Assembly: GCA_023136775.1 (NCBI GenBank)
Contig: JAGLQO010000003.1
Coordinates: forward strand, 1 to 60,209
Source of the DNA: Candidatus Pacearchaeota archaeon
GTDB taxonomy: Archaea; Nanobdellota; Nanobdellia; Pacearchaeales; GW2011-AR1
Direction of reading: 5' to 3'
Length of the DNA stretch: 60,209 nt
Both the position numbers and the translations under genes were made by a program. The stretch's first letter is position 1. Each line of letters begins with the position of its first letter. The notes beneath the pieces are model-generated. The model searched no databases and was not told the DNA's origin. It worked only from the letters and a program-made list of their open reading frames with translations. Shown here piece after piece: positions 4,640 through 58,722 of the stretch.

Positions 4640-4650
4640 GCTTTATTTTA

Positions 4651-4768
4651 CTGGAGCGTTAGCGATTAAATGGACAAGTCTTTCGAGCGGAATGAAATGG
4701 AGCGGTTATGAGTCGAATGAAGACGGAGTCGTAATGAGCGAATAAATATGAGAAACGAAGTTTCTCTA
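4651..4768 (-). repeat. Truncated, decayed long-form element (P4 hairpin plus 3' domain) immediately after the alaS stop
   Basis: Minus strand reads TAGAGAAACTTCGTTTCTCATATTTATTCGC...ACTTGTCCATTTAATCGCTAACGCTCCAG. This parallels copy B (AGGAGAACTTCGTTCTCATATTTTGCAGC...ACTTGGCTGTTCAATTGCGAAATAATTTTCGCTCCAAC). Confidence 0.55.
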
Positions 4769-9188: not shown

Positions 9189-9340
9189 ATTGACATTTTT
9201 TTCTGGTGAAAAAAATCGTCAGAGAAAATCCGCACAGGATTTTAGATTCCAGACCGCTTACCGTACATGCCGCAGACGGTCTGATATATTTAGGGAATTT
9301 GTTACAAATTCCCGTTATTCGGAGTGAATGCTATGTAACC
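9189..9340 (+). ncRNA. Stop-codon-proximal structured element, short form, copy A
   Basis: P1 TTGAC-A-T7-CTGGTG-A7-TC-GTCAG. P2 AAAATCC/GGATTTT. P3 CAGACCG/CGGTCTG around CTTACCG..CGCAGA. P4 GGGAATTTG/CAAATTCCC. Starts 3 nt after the rhomboid stop. Confidence 0.7.
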
Positions 9341-10055: not shown

Positions 10056-10122
10056 TTGGTAGTGGGTAGTTGGCAGTTGGTAGTAGGCAGTGAAAGACAT
10101 TGTTGCGTCGTTTTTCGACGCT
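10053..10122 (+). repeat. R-motif copy 1: G/T-rich degenerate short tandem repeats plus conserved CATTGTTGCGTCGTTTTTCGACGCT
   Basis: Shares 24 of 25 nt with 58684-58708 and is identical to 11701-11725. Hairpin GCGTCG-TTTTT-CGACGC followed by a T-rich run. Confidence 0.7.
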
Positions 10123-10150
10123 TTTGTATTAGAAGTGAATGCCATATAAC

Positions 10151-10224
10151 ATTTAAAAAAATTGATTTAGACTTTTTTGTTTTCCGTAATTATTCAAGAC
10201 CCAAGATTCTTTTCTTATATCTTC
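10151..10224. repeat. 74-bp perfect duplicate of the 3' end of the nre-like gene (partner 10448-10521)
   Basis: Identical string atttaaaaaaattgatttagac...cttatatcttc at both positions. The two copies bracket element copy B. Confidence 0.9.
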
Positions 10225-10230
10225 ATAATA

Positions 10231-10446
10231 TCAACATTTTTCCTGGTGAAAAAATCGTTGAGAAAATTCTGCAGGAATTTTAAATTCCGAACCGCTTACC
10301 GTCAAGGCCGCAGACGGTTCGATATAATTCTTTAGGAGAACTTCGTTCTCATATTTTGCAGCTGGCATTTTCTTAACGGGCGTTGCCCTAAAAATACACA
10401 GGCTGCCGACTTGGCTGTTCAATTGCGAAATAATTTTCGCTCCAAC
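10231..10446 (+). ncRNA. Structured element, long form, copy B
   Basis: P1 TCAAC/GTTGA. P2 AAAATTC/GAATTTT. P3 CGAACCG/CGGTTCG. P4 GAGAAC/GTTCTC. An extra 3' domain has hairpins GGGC-GTT-GCCC and GCGAAA-TAA-TTTTCGC. Confidence 0.7.
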
Positions 10447-10449
10447 AAT

Positions 10450-11649
10450 TTAAAAAAATTGATTTAGACTTTTTTGTTTTCCGTAATTATTCAAGACCCA
10501 AGATTCTTTTCTTATATCTTCCATGTTAATATCGATTCTAGTTTGCATATTTTTTATTGCGTCATCGATTGAGTCGAAATATTTTGGCTCGTTTTTGAAA
10601 GTTCTTCTGGCTGTTTCTCTTACTACTCCAACTCCTAGTGGTGCGTAATATTCTGCCCTGATTTCCCTGAAGATGAAAACTGTGGCTTGTCGTTTTATTT
10701 TTTCTAGGTATTCTGTTAGGGGAAGTCTCATTGCGTAATAACCGCCTGTGATGTTTGAGGCGTATTTTGTTCGACCTTTGAAAGATTCGTAATCTTGAGA
10801 AATAACAGTTTTATCTCCGACGTAAAAGTTTCCGGCTTTCCATGCTTCAATTGCGTCAAATGTAAAATATCCTGGAAGAAGTAAGGCTTCTATATAATTA
10901 CCGACGAAGTTTCCTGAGAAAAGCATTATTTGATTAATCTCTGGGTAGAATCTTATTTTTTCTAAATGTTGTTTTGATATTGTGTCGTCGGTTGCGGTGA
11001 TGCTCCATCTAGTTGGGACCATTCTTCTTCGAATTTTTTTACCGAGCAAACCGATGGATAATAATTTTTGTAGATGATCAACTTTTGTGTTTGATTTATA
11101 TAATTCCTTTAGGGCATCAGTTGCTTTGACGTCGTAGTCGCTGGTCAAATAATCAACTTTCTTTGAGACTTTTACGTTCTCTTCTAGGATTGCTTTTTTT
11201 ATTGGTGCGGGATTTGTCATCGGTCTAAAAACTGAGTCTGGGGTAAATTCCATTGTTGGTTTTCTTTTTAGAAAAATTTCTGTCGAGACTGGTTTTGAAG
11301 AAAGAGCCAATTCTTTTGTAACGGACTTTAACCTATCATCTATTTTGATATGGGATTTTGATTTGCCATAAATTAATTGTCCTCTTAATCTAAGTACATT
11401 TGCTATTGAGAAATTGCTTTTGCTCCACTCTTCGGCTGTTGCGAAATTTGAAACGTTGTCATTATCTTGCGGGGTTAAGATTCCGGAATTAATATAGGGA
11501 TAGCCAATTCTTCCTACAAAAAGTTCTGGGGCTGATTTTCCAGAGAAATGTAATTTTGGTTTTGGGGCGTTGTCAATAAATTTATTTAAAATCTTGCAAG
11601 GCTTTCCACACATTCCTTTTCCTTTGCATTTGATACATAGATTATCCAT
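10450..11649 (-). CDS. NreA-like protein (archaeal Nre family, DUF650/DUF651)
   Basis: N-terminal LCIKCKGKGMCGKPCKIL Cys cluster and about 400 aa length fit my memory of Nre. I use the ATG at 11649 because the upstream extension runs through repeat R2. Confidence 0.55.
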   Translation of the reverse strand: MDNLCIKCKGKGMCGKPCKILNKFIDNAPKPKLHFSGKSAPELFVGRIGYPYINSGILTPQDNDNVSNFATAEEWSKSNFSIANVLRLRGQLIYGKSKSHIKIDDRLKSVTKELALSSKPVSTEIFLKRKPTMEFTPDSVFRPMTNPAPIKKAILEENVKVSKKVDYLTSDYDVKATDALKELYKSNTKVDHLQKLLSIGLLGKKIRRRMVPTRWSITATDDTISKQHLEKIRFYPEINQIMLFSGNFVGNYIEALLLPGYFTFDAIEAWKAGNFYVGDKTVISQDYESFKGRTKYASNITGGYYAMRLPLTEYLEKIKRQATVFIFREIRAEYYAPLGVGVVRETARRTFKNEPKYFDSIDDAIKNMQTRIDINMEDIRKESWVLNNYGKQKSLNQFF

Positions 11650-12112
11650 GGGATAATCTGCTTGTAGTTTGTGGCTGATAGTTTGTGGTTCTTTCCAATG
11701 CATTGTTGCGTCGTTTTTCGACGCTATTTATTTTTCTGTTTTCAAGCCTTAGTTTAATTGAATTATTAATTATTTTGATTAGACTTGATAATTTTAGTCC
11801 TATTGATTGTATATCTTGATTTAACTTCTCAAATTGTTCGTTAGATATATAATTTAAATCTCTTGACATTAATAAAAAATTCTCACACTCTTTTAGGCTT
11901 CCCATTGCTATATGTAAAAATCTTAGAAAATCTTTGTCCGAGTTTCTTCCTGTGCCTTCTGCTATGTTTGCTGAAATACTCAGAGAGGCTCGTCTTAATT
12001 GTGAAGTTATAGAATACATTTCTTCTCTAGGGAAATTTTTTGTTATTTTATAAACTTCTTTCCCAAATTCAAAGGATAGCTTCCATGTTTGTAATTTTTT
12101 AAAATCCTGCAT
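11642..12112 (-). CDS. Four-helix-bundle protein (23S rRNA intervening-sequence protein / Avd-like, PF05635-like)
   Basis: SITSQLRRASLSISANIAEG and MGSLKECENFL are characteristic. The last ~30 codons read through repeat R2, so the true C-terminus is uncertain. Confidence 0.75.
   Translation of the reverse strand: MQDFKKLQTWKLSFEFGKEVYKITKNFPREEMYSITSQLRRASLSISANIAEGTGRNSDKDFLRFLHIAMGSLKECENFLLMSRDLNYISNEQFEKLNQDIQSIGLKLSSLIKIINNSIKLRLENRKINSVEKRRNNALERTTNYQPQTTSRLSHG
11665..11725 (+). repeat. R-motif copy 2
   Basis: TAGTTTGTGG repeated twice, then CATTGTTGCGTCGTTTTTCGACGCT. Confidence 0.7.
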
Positions 12113-12893: not shown

Positions 12894-13040
12894 GTTGGCT
12901 TTTTTTCTGGTGAAAAAAATACCAGGTGAAATCCGCAAAGATTTCTAGATTCCGAACCGCTTACCGTCACGCCGCAGACTGGTTCGATATATTTAGTGCG
13001 AATATTTATTCGCACGTTCTTGGAAGTGGATGTTATTTTA
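12894..13040 (+). ncRNA. Structured element, short form, copy C
   Basis: P1 outer TTGG/CCAG. P2 GAAATC/GATTTC. P3 CGAACC/GGTTCG. P4 GTGCGAAT/ATTCGCAC. Starts 4 nt after the stop. Confidence 0.65.
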
Positions 13041-13128
13041 TTTTGGAGATTTTAGTTTAGATATAAATATAGACGTATGAATTATTAGTTATCTAAATAT
13101 TTATAAAGAATTTATTACTTATTTTGTT

Positions 13129-17100: not shown

Positions 17101-17335
17101 ACGGGGTTTGAGTGATTGAGGTGGCGGATTGTTGGAGCGAGAACTTGTTCGAGCGATGGGATATTCAAGACAGGGGAAACAAATTTTGGCTCGCGGATTT
17201 ATAGGATTTAATGTATTCAAGGTAGTGGAATGGGGGACAATTTTTGCTCACGGATTTTCACAGACACCTTCGGTGTTCACGGATTCAAGGCAATGATTTT
17301 GGGAATGTCAACAAAGGGGCAATTTTGTTTTGGAA
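17101..17335. repeat. Intergenic repeat array (GAGCGA module, CAGGGGAAACAAATTTTGGCTC module, CACGGAT-hairpin unit)
   Basis: 17123-17200 resembles 18097-18175. The unit 17246-17307 resembles 45661-45723. Confidence 0.7.
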
Positions 17336-17902: not shown

Positions 17903-18250
17903 AATATTCAAGACAGGGGAAACAAATTTTGGCTCGTAGATTTTGGGGATTCAAGACAAGAAGACAAATAGCTCACGGATTTACACGGATGAGCTTGCCC
18001 ATTCACGGCATTCTCACAATATATAATTAAATAGGTTGGGTATATTTATTCAAGATACTAGGTTATTGGAGTGAGAACTTGTTCGAGCGATGAGGTGGAT
18101 GGATTGTTGGAGTGAAGATGGAATCGAGCGATGGGATATTTAAGATAGGGAAAACAAATTTTGGCTCACGGATTTACACGGATGGGCTTGCCCATTCACG
18201 GATTTTATTCCTAGGATTGTTGGAGTGAAGATGGAATCGAGCGATATTAA
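17903..18250. repeat. Intergenic repeat array (same modules as 17101-17335, two to three rounds)
   Basis: attcaagacaggggaaacaaattttggctc at 17906, with a variant at 18137. CACGGAT-hairpin units at 17971-18017 and 18164-18206. ggattgttggagtgaagatggaatcgagcgat occurs twice. Confidence 0.7.
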
Positions 18251-20959: not shown

Positions 20960-21186
20960 AAATTAAACAAGTTAAGTTTTTATATAAATATAGTGGTTGA
21001 CATTTTCGTTGATGTGAAAATTGTTGAGGGAAAATTGGGGGATTCCAGATTCCAAAAATTTTCGCAAGCAAATTGTGGAGTTTTTCTTTAAAAAATGAAT
21101 TTTCTATTCACGGCTTATTTAACCTTGTCATACAACCTATTAGAACTGTTATATAATTTTATAAAGTTATTTTATATCGAAGATAT

Positions 21187-30332: not shown

Positions 30333-30941
30333 ATGAAAAAGAACAAAAACAGGGGTAACACTATTTTACATGAGCTAAAACATCATTTGCCATTTACTTT
30401 AACTTCTAGTATAGCTGCTGGTATTTTGGTTGCAATTTTTTATTTAATTAATAAAACATTTTTTGTCGGTGTGGTATCTAATCTTTTTGAGATTATGCAT
30501 CCCGCCCATGTTTTTGTTTCAGCTATGGCAACTGCGGCCATTTATAATAAATATAAAAAATCTATTCCAAAATCTATCTTTATAGGAATGGTTGGGGCTA
30601 TTCTTATCGGAAGTTTAAGTGATGTGATTTTTCCATGGGTTGCTGGAAATTTATTTTCACTTCATACTCATTTTCATTTACCGATAATTGAAAAAACATT
30701 TTTTATTTTAGGAGTTGCTGGAATTGGGGCTGCGATTGGTTCAAAATGGAATTTGTTTAATGCAAGTCATTCCGTACATGTTTTTATTTCAATTTTTGCT
30801 AGCTTATTTTATTTATTAACATTTAGTGTTGAAATGAATCCATTGACGGTTATGCTAACTTCATTAATAATTTTTCTTGCTGTTTATATTCCATGTTGTA
30901 TAAGTGATATTATATTCCCTCTATTATTTGTAAAGAAATGA
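30333..30941 (+). CDS. His-rich multi-TM membrane protein
   Basis: 202 aa, about 6 TM segments. HELKHH, HPAH and HTHFH motifs. Confidence 0.5.
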   Translation: MKKNKNRGNTILHELKHHLPFTLTSSIAAGILVAIFYLINKTFFVGVVSNLFEIMHPAHVFVSAMATAAIYNKYKKSIPKSIFIGMVGAILIGSLSDVIFPWVAGNLFSLHTHFHLPIIEKTFFILGVAGIGAAIGSKWNLFNASHSVHVFISIFASLFYLLTFSVEMNPLTVMLTSLIIFLAVYIPCCISDIIFPLLFVKK

Positions 30942-31008
30942 ATTGACATTTTTTTCTGGTTCATACTCACCTAGTACACCACTCACGAGAAGCAGCGAAA
31001 ATGTCAAT
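30942..31008. repeat. Head-to-head ATTGACATTTT arms between convergent genes (copy H)
   Basis: aattgacatttttttctgg follows the + gene stop. The reverse complement of gaaaatgtcaatatt contains the TGA stop of the GH13 gene on the minus strand. Confidence 0.6.
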
Positions 31009-34248: not shown

Positions 34249-34402
34249 ATTGACATTTTTTAGTGGTCTAAAAAATCGTCAGGGGAAATCCACACAGGAT
34301 TTCTAGATTCCAAACAGCTTACCGTCGAGGCCGCAGACTGGTTCGATACATGGAGGGAATTTCTTTGAAATTCCCGTTTAGGGGAGTGGCTGTTATCTTT
34401 CA
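34249..34402 (+). ncRNA. Structured element, short form, copy D
   Basis: P1 inner TTTTTTAG/CTAAAAAA. P2 GAAATCC/GGATTTC. P3 imperfect (CAAACAG vs CTGGTTCG). P4 GGGAATTTC/GAAATTCCC. Lies between divergent genes. Confidence 0.6.
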
Positions 34403-38361: not shown

Positions 38362-41300
38362 TCATCCTATCACATACCAGGAAATACCATTACAGGCAAG
38401 AGTTACCCCCCCATAATTTGTAAAAGACAAATCAACACCATCTGGACATATTATTTTTTGAGTTCCACTTGCCTCATTATGTTCAATAATCATGGTATAA
38501 GATGGATGAGATTTATAAATATGAACTATTTGTCCATCAACACCATTAGCTAATCCTGCAATATATATATTTGCATCTGATGGACTAACTATAACAGAAT
38601 TCACTCCGCTTACATCTAATGCATCACTTGAAGCTGAGATTACCTTAACAGAAGAAGATATTGCCCCATTAACTTCTAGTTTTGAATGCGGATCTGTTAC
38701 TCCAATCCCCACATCCCCACCCATAATACACATAGAATTCGCCTGATTACAATTAACCCCATTCATATCATCCAATCCAATCGCAACAACATAATCAGCC
38801 CCTGCTTGGATTTCTCTTCCCATTGCTGTTGAATAATCCCCTGAAGCTATTGTATAGGCGCCCATTGCTGTTGAATAATCACCTGAAGCATTTGTAGTAC
38901 GCCCCATTGCTGTTGAATAACTCCCTATAGCATCTGTATTAGAACCCATAGCTACAGAAGAAGTACCTGAAGCTGTTGTATAGGCGCCCATTGCTGTTGA
39001 GGTAGAACCTAAAGCAGTTGTCCAAAAACCCATTGCTGTCGAATAAAATCCTGAAGCATTTGTTCGATACCCCATTGCTGTTGCAGATGGACCCGAAGCA
39101 GTTGTATCCCCACCCATCGCCACAGCATAATCACCTGTCGCACTATTCAAAGACGAACCAATTGTCGCCGCCCCACCAGAACTTACCTCTACATCTAATT
39201 TAGCAGAAGGAGTTGTTGTTCCAATTCCAACTCTATTATTAGTTTGATCAATAACTAAAGTATTAGAATCAAAGTTAAGATTACTAGTTAAAGTCCAAGC
39301 TCCACCCGTTGGCATTCTAATAGATTCTATATTTCCACTTGGGAAAAAACTAGTTGCTGAATCTCCAGTTAATGCAGAACCTCCTTCTGAAGATGAACCT
39401 GCATAGTTTCCTGTTGTGTCGGTTCCAAGTGCAACTGAATTTGCTCCTATAGCTATATTCCCAATAGTTCCTGTCACATCTCCTCCAACTCCAACTCCTT
39501 GAACGTCAGTTGCTGTTTCTATCACATCTGTTGTGACATGATTATAAGCAATATTTCCATAGTCTCCTCTGTATGCTGTTGTGCTTGTAGTTCCTAGATT
39601 TACTCCAACTGTGTCTGCTCCTAAATTTACGGTTCCAACACTTCCAGCTGTTCCTGCATGACTTGCAACATTTAAAGTTGGAGTCCCTGTAGTTCCACCA
39701 CCAGTAAGCCCAGTTCCTGCCGTAACGCCTAAAATATCTCCTCCATCATTTGCATCTGTTCCACAGCTAAATTCATTTGTTCCTGCAGTATATAATAATT
39801 TTCCAGTTGTACAATCTGGAATTATTTTAGCTTCCCAATTATTAACACCATTTCCAATCATTATAGCGTCTTCAATACTTGCTGAAAGTCCTGTTCCTCC
39901 CCTAGCAATTGCTAATGTTCCTGTTGTTAATTTTGTTACTGCTAGGTTTGGAATATCATTTGCCACTAAACTTCTAAAGTTTGGAGAACCAGCTGACCCA
40001 CTTGGAGAAGCAAATACTAAGTTTGCTGCTTGACTAACTAGGGTCGCCGTCAAAGTTCCAGAAGTTGTTACTGGAGAATTTGCGACATTAAAGATTGAAG
40101 GCATTGAAAGTCCTACACTTGCAACGTCTCCTGCTCCTCCAATAGCGTCAACTATCCAGGTAAATCCTGCAGTTGCTGAATCATAACTTAAAATATAATT
40201 ATCAGTTGGAGTGTTTGTAGCTTCTAAATCTATTTCTTGAATTGTATTGTCTAAAATTTCTGCAGTTGCTACTCCGCCTGTTGCAATCTCAGTAGTACCA
40301 ATTGAGTCTTGAACAATTTCATTATTACCGATACTGTTTGCTGTTACCGCAATATCTGGGATTGGACCAGTTCCAAATGTAACTGTTATTGCGTTTCCTC
40401 CAGTTACTTCGGTTAAATCTCCCGAGCCAGTTCCAACTGTTGAAATATCTTTACAATTTATACCGTTTTCATCACAATATTCTGTAGCTCCGACTTGACC
40501 TTCAACATCTAATTTTAAAGTTTCAGATGGGGTAGTTGTTCCTATTCCTACCCTGCTGCTGGTTGTTATATTTCCAGATGAATTTTCCCAAAGACTTGTT
40601 ACTGAAATGTCTGCATATAGGGTGTCCGCGTATGATTCATTCCAACTTTCATTGTCTCCCGCTACTGCGATATCTGCATATAGGGTATCTGCGTATGTTT
40701 TGTTAAATGTGGCGTATGTGTCGTTCCAGTAATTTAATGGGTTAAATATTGAATAAAATAATGTTTCGGCCAAAGATTGATTCCATGATTGATTATCTGC
40801 TCCAGAAATTCCCGTGAGTAAACTTCCGTTTCCTATAAAATAATCTGCTGTGATATTATATCCTGTTGCGTTCAAATTTTCGTCGAATATGATTCCGCCA
40901 ACGTAAACATTTTGAGCCATAAAAGAATAGGGGCTTGTTGTTAAATTCATTCTTGGTGCCATTTCGCTGTCGCCTTCAATTGTAATTCCTAGATAATATT
41001 GTTCGGAGAAATTAAGTCCTGTTGCGTCTAAAATTACGTCGTAGAAAATTCCATCAGTAATTGTCACATCTCTAACAGAATTCCAGAGTGAAACTCCGCC
41101 CGTATAAGAATCATAAATATTAAAAGTAAATTGAAATGTTCCGTTCATTGAACCAGATGAATTGGAGAGTTTACCATGAATGTTAAAAGTTTGAGGAACA
41201 GCGTCGGTTATTGGAGTTGGGTCCACTATGTAATCGAATTCAACTGAATTTCCTATAATTTTCAAATCAAAAGTGTCTTCATTTCCTACTAGAGAAGTTA

Positions 41301-45420: not shown

Positions 45421-45730
45421 GGGGTTTATTTTTGGAATCTGGGGGAAGGCAAATTGCTCGCGGCACCCTCACAAATATATGGTAGATATTGGTTGGGGCA
45501 TTCTAATTTTGGGGATTTTGGGGATTTAAGAACTGGAATAGCCACTAACACCTTCGGTGTACACTAACGCAATAAATTGCGCGCACGAACCTGCGGTGCT
45601 TTTTGTTGATATTTTGATTTTGGCTAAATTTTGCTTGAGAATGTTTTGTTAATTTTAATTGCTCACGGATTTGCACAGATGCCTAACGGCATTCACGGAT
45701 TGAGGACAATGATTTTGAGAGTGAATTTCT
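45421..45730. repeat. Intergenic repeat array related to 17.1-18.2 kb arrays
   Basis: atctgggggaaggcaaattgctcgcgg resembles agacaggggaaacaaattttggctcgcgg. The CACGGAT-hairpin unit at 45661-45723 is also present. Confidence 0.6.
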
Positions 45731-45834
45731 TGTTAGAATAATGACGAGGAGTGGGTGCACTGGTAAATATTTGAACAAAAGTGTTAAATACGGTTTATTC
45801 TTTGTTTTTATATCCGTTAAAAGGGAGGTGAAAA

Positions 45835-47653: not shown

Positions 47654-47803
47654 ATTGACAAAATTTTCTGGTGAAAATTTTCGTCAGGTATCGTCCACAC
47701 AGGACTCTAATTTCCGAACCGCTTACCGCACAGGTCGCAGACGGTTAGATATATGAGGGAATTTGTTCCAAATTCCCGTTTTGGGGAATGGATGTTATAT
47801 GAC
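47654..47803 (+). ncRNA. Structured element, short form, copy E
   Basis: P1 inner AAAATTTT/AAAATTTT. P2 GTCC/GGAC. P3 CGAACCG/CGGTTAG (one mismatch). P4 GGGAATTTG/CAAATTCCC. Starts 4 nt after the tfs stop. Confidence 0.65.
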
Positions 47804-47921
47804 TTTTAGAATTAGTTAAATAATTTTTATATATTAACTGAAGTTACTGGAATCACGCATGTGATTTATTTGAAACTCGCGTCGCAATAATTAATTTTGT
47901 TGGTATTTTGCTATGTAACTT

Positions 47922-51102: not shown

Positions 51103-51158
51103 GGAAATACTTATGGTTTTAGACTTATATGTATTTATGTATTGAATTTAAAATAAAA

Positions 51159-51175
51159 TGACTCCACCAGGAATC
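51159..51175 (-). repeat. 17-nt copy of the tRNA-Val 3' end
   Basis: tgactccaccaggaatc is identical to 51292-51308. The A-rich flank aaaataaaa is also shared. Confidence 0.8.
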
Positions 51176-51237
51176 TACTCAAATTTTGCATCTCACAAAA
51201 ATCTAGTTATGTTTATTTTTGTTCAAAGCAAAATTTT

Positions 51238-51278
51238 CACCTAGGCCACGGCCCAGCTCCATTCGGTTGTAGTAATTT
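51238..51278 (-). pseudogene. Decayed partial tRNA-Val copy (anticodon-arm to T-arm region)
   Basis: cacctaggccacggcccagctccattcggttgtagtaattt aligns by eye with caccaggaatcggacctgggccttttcggtgtaagcgaaat of the intact gene. Confidence 0.45.
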
Positions 51279-51291
51279 TTAAAAATAAAAA

Positions 51292-51362
51292 TGACTCCAC
51301 CAGGAATCGGACCTGGGCCTTTTCGGTGTAAGCGAAATAGTCTACCATTAGCTTATGGAGTC
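51292..51362 (-). tRNA. tRNA-Val (anticodon UAC)
   Basis: Folded by hand. Acceptor GACTCCA/TGGAGTC. Anticodon arm TTTCG-CTTACAC-CGAAA. T arm CCAGG-TCCGATT-CCTGG. 4-nt variable loop. No encoded CCA. Confidence 0.85.
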
Positions 51363-51383
51363 ATATAATGAATTCATAAGCTT

Positions 51384-51422
51384 CGTGAAGCAACTTGATT
51401 GCTACTATAGCTTATGGAGTCA
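51384..51422 (-). pseudogene. Partial tRNA-Val-like 5' half
   Basis: 15 nt (tagcttatggagtca) are identical to the tRNA 5' end and the D/anticodon region is diverged. There is no T arm or acceptor 3' strand. Confidence 0.5.
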
Positions 51423-51524
51423 ATATTATATTATCATAATTTAGTTTTATAAAGTTAATTATTAATAATTTGAACCTAATATCTTCGCAACAACTACTTT
51501 AAAGAAAATTGTCTATCTATTTTC

Positions 51525-51904: not shown

Positions 51905-52191
51905 ATCAATGGAGCGGAAATTATTTCCGCGATTAAATAGCCAAGTTGCAGTCTGTGTTTTTTTAGGGCGGATGCCCGTTAATCTCACGTAAAAGTGTAC
52001 CCTTTAGATAGGCAATCTGAGATTGCATTTTAATCGGGCAAAAAAACCAGCTGCAAAATATGAGAATCGAAGATTCTCCTAAAAACCTATATCAAATTAT
52101 CTGCGACGCGAGTCGGTAAGTAATTTGGGATCTAGGACTTGCCTCTCGAAGACCAACCTGACGATTTTTTTCACCAGAAAAAAATGTCAAT
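51905..52191 (-). ncRNA. Structured element, long form with an extra nested-helix insertion, copy F
   Basis: P1 is identical to copy A over 34 nt. P3 CAAATTA/TAATTTG. P4 GAGAATC/GATTCTC. 3' domain hairpins GGGC-ATCC-GCCC and GCGGAAAT-A-ATTTCCGC. Starts 3 nt after the stop of 52195..52869. Confidence 0.7.
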
Positions 52192-55309: not shown

Positions 55310-55380
55310 ATATAAAAAACCAAAAATTGATTTATAAAGCTTAGCACGAAAAATCTTGAGAAATAAACAACCCATCGTTC

Positions 55381-55900
55381 GCTGAGGCTCACTTCAAAGC
55401 TCGCTGCGGGATATTTCTAAACTCGGGACAATTTCAACTGCCCAACCTTCCGACCTTGATTCTCAACATATCTTTTAACATCATCTAGTCCCCGACCATC
55501 GCCAACAGTATCAATATGTCCACCATCGCTCCAGAATTCGCCACCCCACAGTTCTTCCTTCAGCTTCGGGAATTTTTTAAAAATCTGAATTGCCAAAATA
55601 CTTTTGCAAATTTGCATAATTCTTGACGGTGAATTCTTTGGAGCACTTTCAACAACAATATGAATATGATCATCTTCATGTCCCAATGCATCAAACCAAA
55701 GATAATATCTCTTGGAAATTCCACGACAAATTTCTTTCATAAAATCAAAAACGTCGTCGGTGATTAAATCCGGCCTATACTTTACAACGAAGACCATGTG
55801 ATATCGGATCCTATACGAACAATGACTAGCCTTTCTAACTTTCATAAAAAAACAAACTTCAAAACCTAGTTAAGCTTATCGCAGCAAGCTGCGGGGTATT
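55381..55900 (-). mobile_element. IS200-like element (tnpA only) with similar subterminal sequences at both ends
   Basis: Both flanks carry AATA(T/C)CCCGCAGC in direct orientation. The 5' flank forms CGCAGC-TT-GCTGCG. Confidence 0.7.
55417..55845 (-). CDS. tnpA: IS200/IS605-family Y1 (HUH) transposase
   Basis: 142 aa. YHMVFVVKYR, HUH motif DHIHIVV and catalytic-Tyr region VKRYVENQG. Confidence 0.9.
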   Translation of the reverse strand: MKVRKASHCSYRIRYHMVFVVKYRPDLITDDVFDFMKEICRGISKRYYLWFDALGHEDDHIHIVVESAPKNSPSRIMQICKSILAIQIFKKFPKLKEELWGGEFWSDGGHIDTVGDGRGLDDVKRYVENQGRKVGQLKLSRV

Positions 55901-56130
55901 CACCCAGTGAGAAATAATTTAAACTCTTAGTGCTTAGGGAAATTATGAAAACTAATTTAGAGAAAATTTTAATTAAAGAATTCTGCGAAAAACTACCTTT
56001 CAATTGGGCTCCGATTGAAAAGAATGGAATCTGTAGAATTCCAAATGATTACTGTATATATTGTAAAGAATTTTTTAAAATATAATTTACGAAAAATCAA
56101 ATATATACTTTAATCAATAAAAAATATAGT

Positions 56131-58543: not shown

Positions 58544-58625
58544 ATAGAATAAACATTATGTTTTTTTATAAATGTAGAGGTAAATCCTTTGGATTTACGG
58601 TAGGGGTAATTCTGCGGAATTTACT

Positions 58626-58708
58626 GGTCTGGGGTGGCGGGTCTGGGGTGGCGGGTCTGGGGTGGCGGGTCTGGGGTAGAAAACATTGTTGCGTCGTTTG
58701 TCGACGCT
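58626..58708 (+). repeat. R-motif copy 3: 14-mer GGTCTGGGGTGGCG x3.7 plus CATTGTTGCGTCGTTTGTCGACGCT
   Basis: Perfect tandem 14-mers at 58626-58677. The conserved motif is at 58684-58708. Confidence 0.85.
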
Positions 58709-58722
58709 TTTGTTTTTGTGTT

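Follow-up and report, generated by a model that had tools for sequence, protein, structure and literature searches.

The DNA considered here is a 60,209-nt stretch of a Candidatus Pacearchaeota archaeon genome (GenBank assembly GCA_023136775.1, contig JAGLQO010000003.1, positions 1 to 60,209), which we refer to as the window in the following. The window forms the end of a 162.6-kb metagenomic scaffold in ENA ERZ23498471, the same population is found in NCBI GCA_030641395.1, and its PolB is at most 61% identical to those of Pacearchaeota, Woesearchaeota and Nanoarchaeia metagenome-assembled genomes (MAGs), which makes the host a member of the DPANN archaea, a group with some of the most compact genomes known. 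Spacers of this window are occupied by an intergenic, multi-copy element with a conserved fold, which a first-pass annotation had described as a structured, RNA-like repeat that begins directly behind stop codons. In the following, we describe its copies, their fold and modular make-up, and the differences between strains, and discuss what kind of element it may be.

The six full copies of the first-pass annotation, A to F, are confirmed by pattern and covariance-model matches. Copies A (9189–9340, plus strand, 117 bits), C (12894–13044, plus, 89 bits) and E (47654–47806, plus, 106 bits) consist of a core and a short tail and stand behind the stop codons of a rhomboid gene, the gene of a 94-aa protein and tfs, respectively. 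Copy F (51905–52191, minus strand, 92.7 bits), which has a core, a long tail and about 60 nt of additional internal hairpins, stands likewise behind the gene of a 224-aa protein; the PIN-like nature formerly ascribed to this gene comes down to a faint PF11848/DUF3368 match. The gap between stop codon and the initial ATTGAC is 3 (A), 5 (C), 4 (E) or 3 nt (F). Copy B (10225–10447, plus, 95.8 bits; core and long tail) is a recent insertion, and copy D (34249–34402, plus, 95 bits; core and short tail) lies in a divergent promoter region. These scores come from a covariance model that we built on the 100-nt core (helices P1–P3) and ran on the window, in which the six copies reach 89–117 bits with E-values of 1e-16 to 1e-21. 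The pattern CTTACCG-N6-8-CGCAGA-N6-7-GATA matches the window exactly six times, always at a known copy, with 0.00 matches expected from shuffles, and repeat finding recovers the family on both strands. Identity between copies is only 61–82%. A degenerate seventh copy (20996–21091, plus; 26.3 bits, E = 0.0025), also in a divergent promoter region, still has a readable P1 and the sequence AGATTCC, while its CTTACCG and CGCAGA motifs are gone.

Three helices are formed by the core within its own strand: P1, a long hairpin whose loop reads CUGGUG, then P2, and P3, in which the internal loop CUUAC(CG)/(CG)CAGA is invariant. GAUAUA and a 3′ module come next. In copy A, P1 spans positions 9190–9222 (loop CTGGTG at 9203–9208), P2 9225–9243, the junction TAGATTCC 9243–9250 and P3 9250–9283 (CTTACCG at 9257–9263, CGCAGA at 9272–9277), with GATATA at 9283–9288, P4 at 9293–9313 and the tail at 9314–9340. 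The stems first reported can all be read in the sequence: the outer P1 stem is TTGAC/GTCAG in A, D, E and F, TCAAC/GTTGA in B and TTGG/CCAG in C, and the inner one is T7/A7 in A, C and F and exchanged for AAAATTTT/AAAATTTT in E. P2 is formed by AAAATCC/GGATTTT (A), AAAATTC/GAATTTT (B), GAAATC/GATTTC (C) or GTCC/GGAC (E), and P3 by CAGACCG/CGGTCTG (A), CGAACCG/CGGTTCG (B) or CAAATTA/TAATTTG (F). The P4 variants were also given correctly; this helix changes in a compensatory manner, in that A/E and D differ by the flip of a pair from G-C to C-G, and B and F (GAGAAC/GTTCTC and GAGAATC/GATTCTC) by an inserted base pair, and is replaced outright by different hairpins in copy C (GTGCGAAT/ATTCGCAC) and in a solo short tail.

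The proposed compensatory changes are borne out by an alignment of eight sequences, namely the six copies, a strain variant of copy E and a further copy from a sister strain. Over P1–P3, 91.9% of the cells are canonical, as compared to 33–61% when the partners are slid by 1–3 columns. Changes on both sides are seen in 18 of 28 pairs, spread over all three helices, as compared to 5.6 ± 1.9 after shuffling; none of 500 shuffles reaches 18, the slid controls give at most 6 such pairs, and a run with seven sequences agrees. Invariant columns, by contrast, are more frequent among unpaired (23 of 44) than among paired positions (17 of 56; Fisher p = 0.04). About 30 unpaired nucleotides of the core are invariant, and the motifs CTTACCG, CGCAGA and GATA, proposed early on as conserved single strands, show no substitution among the full copies, while the stems diverge by 18–39%. 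The combination of variable stems and fixed loops, the central point of the first-pass annotation, is thereby upheld, and the elaborate fold of the element is clearly under selection. Single-sequence folds exceed shuffles in stability, with z-scores of −3.6 (A), −4.2 (F) and −2.3 (B).

The folded species may be RNA or single-stranded DNA. Folding energies of sense and antisense strands are similar, and G-U pairs outnumber A-C mismatches by 11 to 6, with 7 of the 11 being one conserved U-G pair at the base of P1. A pairing of the P1 and P3 loops (UGGUGA with UUACCG) was considered and dropped: both motifs are nearly invariant, and where the loop of copy D departs, it retains UGGU, with no compensating change. 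A further strain, L123, has a single mismatch to the window over 6876 nt, a T to G change at 47680, which sits in the 3′ strand of P1 in copy E and breaks one base pair.

Downstream of the core, the 3′ modules are interchangeable. A short module, P4 hairpin plus GTTTTGGGGAGTGGATGTTAT, is found on A, C, D, E and the sister-strain copy, and a long one, consisting of P4 and a multi-hairpin domain of roughly 110–170 nt with a CGCTCCA end, on B and F. Besides the copies, four isolated fragments were found by eye and with nhmmer. The first is a solo P1 hairpin (GTTGGTATTTTTTCTGGTGAAATCAAC; 2681–2706, plus) 5 nt past the leuS stop codon, rightly annotated as a hairpin-only copy (G). The second, at 30942–30960 (plus; ATTGACATTTTTTTCTGGT), had been taken for another hairpin (H), but represents only the first 19 nt of the element; it is flush with the stop codon of a His-rich protein gene (30333–30941). 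The third is a solo short-tail module (10094–10150, plus), composed of ACATTG, the hairpin GCGTCG/CGACGC and TTTTGTATTAGAAGTGAATGCCATATAAC, which abuts a duplicated 3′ end of the Nre gene. The fourth is a solo, degenerate long-tail module (4640–4765, minus; B/F-type P4 hairpin ... GACTTG..TTTAATCGC..CGCTCCA), which lies flush with the stop codon of AlaRS and takes up all of the spacer between this gene and the convergent DUF1003 gene. This combinatorial make-up can be likened to that of bacterial interspersed mosaic elements (BIMEs) (PMC2817692).

A co-occurring sister strain, L156, whose SpoIIM and Nre genes are 98.4–98.5% identical in nucleotides to those of the window, differs from it by three element gains or losses within 2.3 kb. 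Its rhomboid–SpoIIM spacer does not contain copy A, but 75 nt of other sequence instead. Its SpoIIM–Nre spacer does not contain copy B, and of the 74-nt segment found on either side of B in the window it has a single copy, such that the Nre 3′ end runs through ...TATATCTTC|CATGTTAATATC... at the empty site. In the window, the left duplicate (10151–10224; 100% identity) is a non-functional duplicate of the Nre 3′ end, whereas the right one (10448–10521) is the functional Nre 3′ end (minus strand, stop codon at 10450–10452). The repeat is perfect over its 74 nt (empirical p = 0.0007), and the same repeat–B–repeat junctions are seen in an independent assembly, L155. Given the empty site with its single 74-nt segment in L156, copy B is an insertion with a 74-nt target-site duplication, and it was inserted as a whole unit, P1 included. 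The third difference is an extra intact copy in the sister strain (L156:2144–2290, 95.8 bits), antisense to Nre and with its 5′ end overlapping the Nre start-codon region; the same site in the window has no copy. As the contig ends before the gene on the other side, Nre is its sole visible neighbor. Copies are thus inserted and lost on the timescale of strain divergence. Furthermore, copy B differs by 23–39% from all other copies seen; because it is recent and yet so diverged, several diverged, foldable source lineages must be active. At sites C, E and F, contigs with identical flanking proteins are all in the same state as the window.

More distant relatives, with 64–73% protein identity in SpoIIM, keep the gene order and carry no copy; we found none in about 110 kb from the relatives L132-135, L157, L158 and L164-166. 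Their rhomboid/SpoIIM and SpoIIM/Nre genes overlap by 4 nt, and DUF1003 and AlaRS are 3 nt apart (L164), as compared to spacers of 291, 394 and 126 nt at the matching junctions of the window. From the comparison with strains and relatives, we conclude that the element family is a recent, fast-turnover acquisition of one species-level lineage. At the left flanks of A, C, E and F, an (A/G)ATGA(A/T) motif precedes TTGAC by 8–14 nt, and GATG stands before the solo P1. The relatives' rhomboid/SpoIIM junction is an overlapping ATGA, and the window has ATGA(A) on either side of the inserted spacer; ATGA may reflect a target preference or a short duplication.

The position relative to stop codons had been a prominent part of the first-pass annotation, according to which copies begin 0–5 nt behind the upstream gene. 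This holds for A, C, E, F, the solo P1 and the 19-nt fragment, but not for B, D, the seventh copy and the copy of L156: the genes on either side of D and of the seventh copy are divergent, such that neither stands behind a stop codon, and B lies 170 nt behind a co-oriented gene, with its 3′ end 2 nt from a stop codon. Together with the solo long tail, seven units are flush with the stop codon of a co-oriented gene at their 5′ end and one unit is flush with a stop codon at its 3′ end, which by our own count corresponds to a one-sided binomial probability of about 0.035. In an ancestor without spacers, a tolerated insertion must abut a gene end, so the small gaps are largely a matter of survivorship; the residual 5′-end polarity may hint at a link to transcription, but is suggestive only. 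We considered whether P1 is a pre-existing terminator that is merely targeted and rejected this, as the empty site of B has no P1 and as D, the seventh copy and the sister-strain copy hold P1 away from gene ends. A bias with replication direction was dropped because the GC skew merely follows gene orientation, and a conserved small open reading frame (ORF) because stem indels shift the frames between copies.

Searches for further copies and for known counterparts were negative throughout. Among 111 listed matches of a loose pattern in GTDB representative genomes, none resembles the element beyond the seeded pattern, and a stricter pattern gave one match there (L112), which is weak beyond the seed (nhmmer 19 bits) and which we take as chance. 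A pattern scan of JGI metagenomes yielded eight loci, all coding or chance, pattern scans of IMG/VR yielded only chance or coding matches, and BLAST against phage and plasmid collections revealed no similarity. The translated antisense open frame of the element has no spurious-ORF match among 5.8 billion proteins. In line with the first impression that no Rfam family is represented, the only Rfam 15 match at gathering thresholds in the whole window is tRNA-Val, and E-value scans over A–C, E and F give only matches that lie 20–60 bits below threshold. Our literature searches, too, yielded no described archaeal mobile element like this one and no DPANN counterpart, which again agrees with the first-pass annotation.

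A 22-mer identical to part of the element was noticed in a MAG of the candidate phyla radiation (CPR), Candidatus Paceibacterota SO_2016_GW1_92. This MAG has at least two copies of a repeat (L172:5361-5420 and L178:5339-5400) that contain the 22-mer ATTTTTTTCTGGTGAAAAAAAT; it is a P1-like hairpin in which the loop is the same, and an unrelated GC hairpin comes after it. The common 22-mer may be due to chance, convergence or exchange among co-occurring ultra-small organisms.

In our reading, the element is a mobile mosaic repeat, non-autonomous and lineage-specific, which requires its fold to propagate; we assign this reading a probability of roughly 0.55. What remains of the original proposal is the conservation of a folded RNA or single-stranded DNA; an RNA firmly coupled to stop codons does not remain, given the gains and losses between strains, the insertion of B, the decayed copies and the relatives that do without the element. 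In the mechanism that we propose, the fold and its invariant loops would be the substrate of a putative trans-acting enzyme for copying and insertion, and selection would therefore act on active source copies. Since the genome has almost no spacer, insertions would survive only at gene boundaries, where the end of an interrupted gene would be preserved by a long target duplication. That 5′-flush units are in excess suggests that read-through transcription from the upstream gene may matter, be it for mobility via an RNA intermediate or for the tolerance of insertions. Staggered breaks, target-primed copying or template switching would account for the 74-nt duplication, a single case, better than HUH Y1 transposition does.

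A number of points weigh against this reading. The covariation is drawn from only eight sequences of one species-level population, and the shuffle test can be inflated by their relatedness. Only B offers both a clean empty site and a target duplication that is firm: at D, which is flanked by an imperfect direct repeat some 30 nt long (p = 0.025), and at the seventh copy (p = 0.039), the flank repeats are marginal, at about 30–40 nt, and local alignment, which is blind to duplications of a few nucleotides, detects no significant flank repeat at A, C, E and F. Site A in L156 holds different filler rather than a clean empty site, and recombination may have replaced the whole spacer there. Moreover, we know of no prokaryotic transposase for which a 74-nt duplication would be typical. 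Finally, the sole mobile-DNA gene in the window encodes a Y1 transposase whose end hairpins are unlike those of the element, and no partner enzyme was found, as precomputed annotations and Pfam scans of the window genes show no reverse transcriptase, integrase or TnpB.

Among the alternatives, the element could be a cis-acting 3′-untranslated region (3′-UTR) RNA selected by the host, transcribed together with the upstream gene and acting, for instance, as a terminator (by way of the U-run hairpin P1 and of P4 with its U-tract), as a protector of mRNA 3′ ends or through loops that bind a regulatory protein; its copies would have been recruited by many genes rather than spread as parasites. The seven units whose 5′ ends lie 0–5 nt from a co-oriented stop codon, the invariant loops and covarying stems, and the T-runs in P1 and past P4 would all fit such a role, as oligo-T is the archaeal termination signal. 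Yet D and the seventh copy reside in divergent promoter regions, B is remote from its co-oriented gene, and the copy of the sister strain runs antisense to Nre, overlapping with the start-codon region of this gene. L156 does without A and B, and syntenic relatives have no spacer at these junctions at all; because copies come and go between near-identical strains, the element is not a fixed 3′-UTR RNA. In addition, the T7 run at the extreme 5′ end would stop transcription before most of the structure is made. Overall, we consider host selection of this kind unlikely.

Doubtful to a greater degree is that the element is a retroposon mobilized through RNA in analogy to short interspersed nuclear elements (SINEs), that is, co-transcribed with the upstream gene, folded, recognized by a reverse transcriptase or another protein, perhaps self-processed at its 5′ end, and copied back at staggered breaks. 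This would explain the long target duplication, the fast divergence with a maintained fold and the sense polarity at stop codons. With eukaryotic SINEs the element shares a structured body that resembles an RNA, 3′ modules that vary, a target duplication that is long, and diverged subfamilies that can still fold, and if it is co-transcribed, the likeness extends to a flank that contributes no promoter. Unlike SINEs, it has no reverse transcriptase partner in the window, no poly(A) tail and no visible internal promoter, and its fragments keep 5′ ends as often as 3′ ends. Of the target duplications, one is firm (74 nt) and two are marginal (about 30–40 nt), and the window genes include no reverse transcriptase. 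SINE-like retroposons are not known in archaea.

We regard it as comparably doubtful that the element is a single-stranded DNA transposon, never present as RNA, with hairpins recognized by an HUH/Y1 transposase in the manner of IS200/IS605-derived palindrome-associated transposable elements (PATEs) or of repetitive extragenic palindromes (REPs) and REPINs, which RAYT (Y1) transposases mobilize. The window does encode an IS200-type Y1_Tnp transposase (55417–55845, minus; PF01797, 108 bits) with hairpin-bearing ends, the element is itself rich in hairpins and has no terminal inverted repeats, its modular mosaic at gene 3′ ends resembles BIMEs (PMC2817692), and sense and antisense strands fold with similar energies. 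On the other hand, IS200/IS605 and REP mobilization duplicates no target, whereas B has its 74 nt, and the left-flank sequences are not conserved: we found no common tetra- or pentanucleotide there, and only a loose ATGA is seen in four copies, about 8–14 nt upstream. P1 does not resemble P4, and neither resembles the hairpins at the IS200 ends (CGCAGCTTGCTGCG); subterminal hairpins matching the ends of the resident Y1 element (55376–56130) were not found in the element, and with its several helices and about 30 unpaired positions that do not vary, the core exceeds the needs of a transposase-binding hairpin. Since its end hairpins differ and HUH Y1 transposition makes no target duplication, the resident Y1 transposase would be a poor candidate for the mobilizer. 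The IS200-like element itself (minus strand) has flanking hairpins that contain CCCGCAGC and sits between a pyruvate kinase and an NMT1-family gene.

Very unlikely, in our view, is a neutral repeat or a recombinational shuffling of spacers, in which the covariation would amount to a few inherited changes and the 74-nt repeat to a product of assembly or slippage. There are indeed only eight related sequences, relatedness alone exceeds the shuffle control in 5–25% of unconstrained alignments, whole spacers differ between strains, and other, unrelated duplications exist at tRNA-Val. However, the slid controls retain this relatedness and still fall far short of the 18 double-change pairs, CTTACCG, CGCAGA and GATA have no substitutions next to stems that diverge by 18–39%, and the junctions of the 74-nt repeats with B occur in two assemblies. 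Least probable of all is a family of trans-acting small RNA genes with their own promoters, for although the structure and loops are conserved and P4 with the following T-tract could serve as a terminator, the upstream regions are unrelated coding DNA with no common promoter-like motif, copies are dispensable between strains, 3′ modules are exchanged and fragments are common.

If the element is a mobile mosaic repeat, as we favor, its closest analogues appear to be bcr1 of the Bacillus cereus group and the REP/BIME sequences. Bcr1 is a non-autonomous, non-coding repeat of about 150–155 nt in intergenic regions near genes; its distribution is not conserved among close strains, it is transcribed, and its predicted RNA structure is kept by compensatory changes (PMC3184786). 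It has 5-bp flanking direct repeats and a simpler, two-stem cruciform-like fold (PMC3184786). Likewise, the distribution of our element varies between close strains and compensatory changes preserve its predicted structure. Unlike bcr1, it is archaeal, folds into three to four helices with an invariant set of about 30 unpaired nucleotides, and has swappable 3′ modules and a single firm target duplication, of 74 nt; the two have no sequence similarity, and whereas bcr1 was shown to be transcribed, our element is known from sequence alone. REP/BIME sequences are extragenic, located mostly at gene 3′ ends, hairpin-forming, mosaic with other motifs and strain-variable (PMC2817692). As REP/REPIN systems do, the window contains a gene for a Y1 transposase, although different hairpins flank it, and unlike REPs, the element has an AT-rich, multi-helix core of 100 nt without a GTAG/CGTC tag. 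REPs are GC-rich palindromes of 20–40 nt with such a tag, which are found in inverted pairs, and their mobilization makes no long target duplication.

The element also resembles MITEs, the miniature inverted-repeat transposable elements, and PATEs, including those of Sulfolobus and haloarchaea, in being small, non-coding, multi-copy, intergenic and strain-polymorphic, and these depend on a trans-acting enzyme, as we propose for the element. Terminal inverted repeats were not found, as ATTGACATTT on the left is no inverted copy of either ...GGAGTGGATGTTAT or ...CGCTCCA on the right; unlike in MITEs derived from DDE transposases, no short target duplication of fixed length (2–10 bp) was detected, and we found no parent insertion sequence with matching ends. 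Several other classes can be set aside. Group II introns, including those of class C that insert behind terminators, do not agree with the absence of an Rfam intron match, the start AUUGAC instead of GUGYG and the length of only 150–290 nt, and P3 resembles domain V (GAACCG...CGGUUC) only superficially. Integron attC is a single imperfect hairpin with R″ (RYYYAAC) and R′ (GTTRRRY) sites, found in cassette arrays beside an intI gene, whereas the element has several helices and ends that do not match these sites; moreover, the neighbors are housekeeping genes (leuS, tfs, alaS) and Pfam listings contain no integrase. A diversity-generating retroelement was considered in view of an Avd-like protein, but the window genes contain no reverse transcriptase domain, and no repeats of the template/variable type (TR/VR) are found nearby. 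Hammerhead ribozymes do not fit, given CUGGUGA in place of CUGANGA, a missing stem II thereafter and the lack of Rfam support, and for the hairpin ribozyme, the SRP Alu domain, k-turns, tRNA-derived elements and bridge or omega RNAs, either topology or a defining motif misfits, again without Rfam support. We file the element as a new member of the class of structured, non-autonomous interspersed repeats.

In one species-level lineage, fast-turnover modular repeats have swollen spacers from about 0 nt to 130–400 nt. The element offers a system for asking how small archaeal mobile elements spread without terminal inverted repeats, and it bears on the origin of unusually long target duplications and on co-option as terminators or 3′-end structures. 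Its invariant loops point to a putative binding protein or enzyme, and it is a sensitive strain marker for this population. A SINE-like retroposon, if this were true, would be the first described in Archaea.

Further modules share parts or sites with the element. Its short-tail motif, TTTTGGGAGTGG.., also ends a second, unrelated intergenic repeat family (CACGGATT-type), which consists of three CACGGATT-like direct repeats around a variable hairpin, with CAATGATTTTGGGAGTG, the tail motif of the element's short tail, at the end. This family is found at 17247–17310, 17971–18010, 18164–18201, 45661–45742 and L156:822-958, and it fills the SpoIIM–Nre spacer of L156, where the window has other modules. 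A third module is made up of G/T-rich short repeats (GTTGGTAG-like; GGTCTGGGGTGGCG four times at 58618–58672), followed by (A)CATTGTTGC and a GCGTCG-TTTTT-CGACGC hairpin, and occurs at 10056–10130, 11655–11733, 58618–58716 and L156:62-100.

The third-module copy at 11697–11733 lies inside the 3′ extension of an ORF for an Avd-like/23S-rRNA-IVP four-helix-bundle protein (11642–12112, minus; PF05635, 134 bits; bAvd 27.9 bits, below cutoff), in which the Pfam domain stops at residue 109 of 156. This gene adjoins Nre on one side and the gene of a 61-aa membrane protein on the other, with no reverse transcriptase nearby. The syntenic site is empty in L164, and in L166 it is occupied by two genes, for a ParE-family toxin and for a DUF7557 protein, which may form a toxin-antitoxin pair; because its contents differ among relatives, the site is an accessory-gene hotspot. 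A ParE/MazE pair is also present among the mobile or accessory genes of the window. At the tRNA-Val gene (51291–51363, minus; region 51140–51425), the last ~26 nt (GATTCCTGGTGGAGTCATTTTATTTT) are repeated 133 nt downstream and the first 15 nt (TGACTCCATAAGCTA) about 45 nt upstream; these repeats may mark short insertions that, as with copy B, are flanked by duplicated ends of a gene, or may be left over from att sites. Lastly, at least six tandem 42-nt (14-codon) repeats at 38777–39137 are located in a 1442-aa ORF with a weak YadA_head match, which likely encodes a repeat-containing surface protein.

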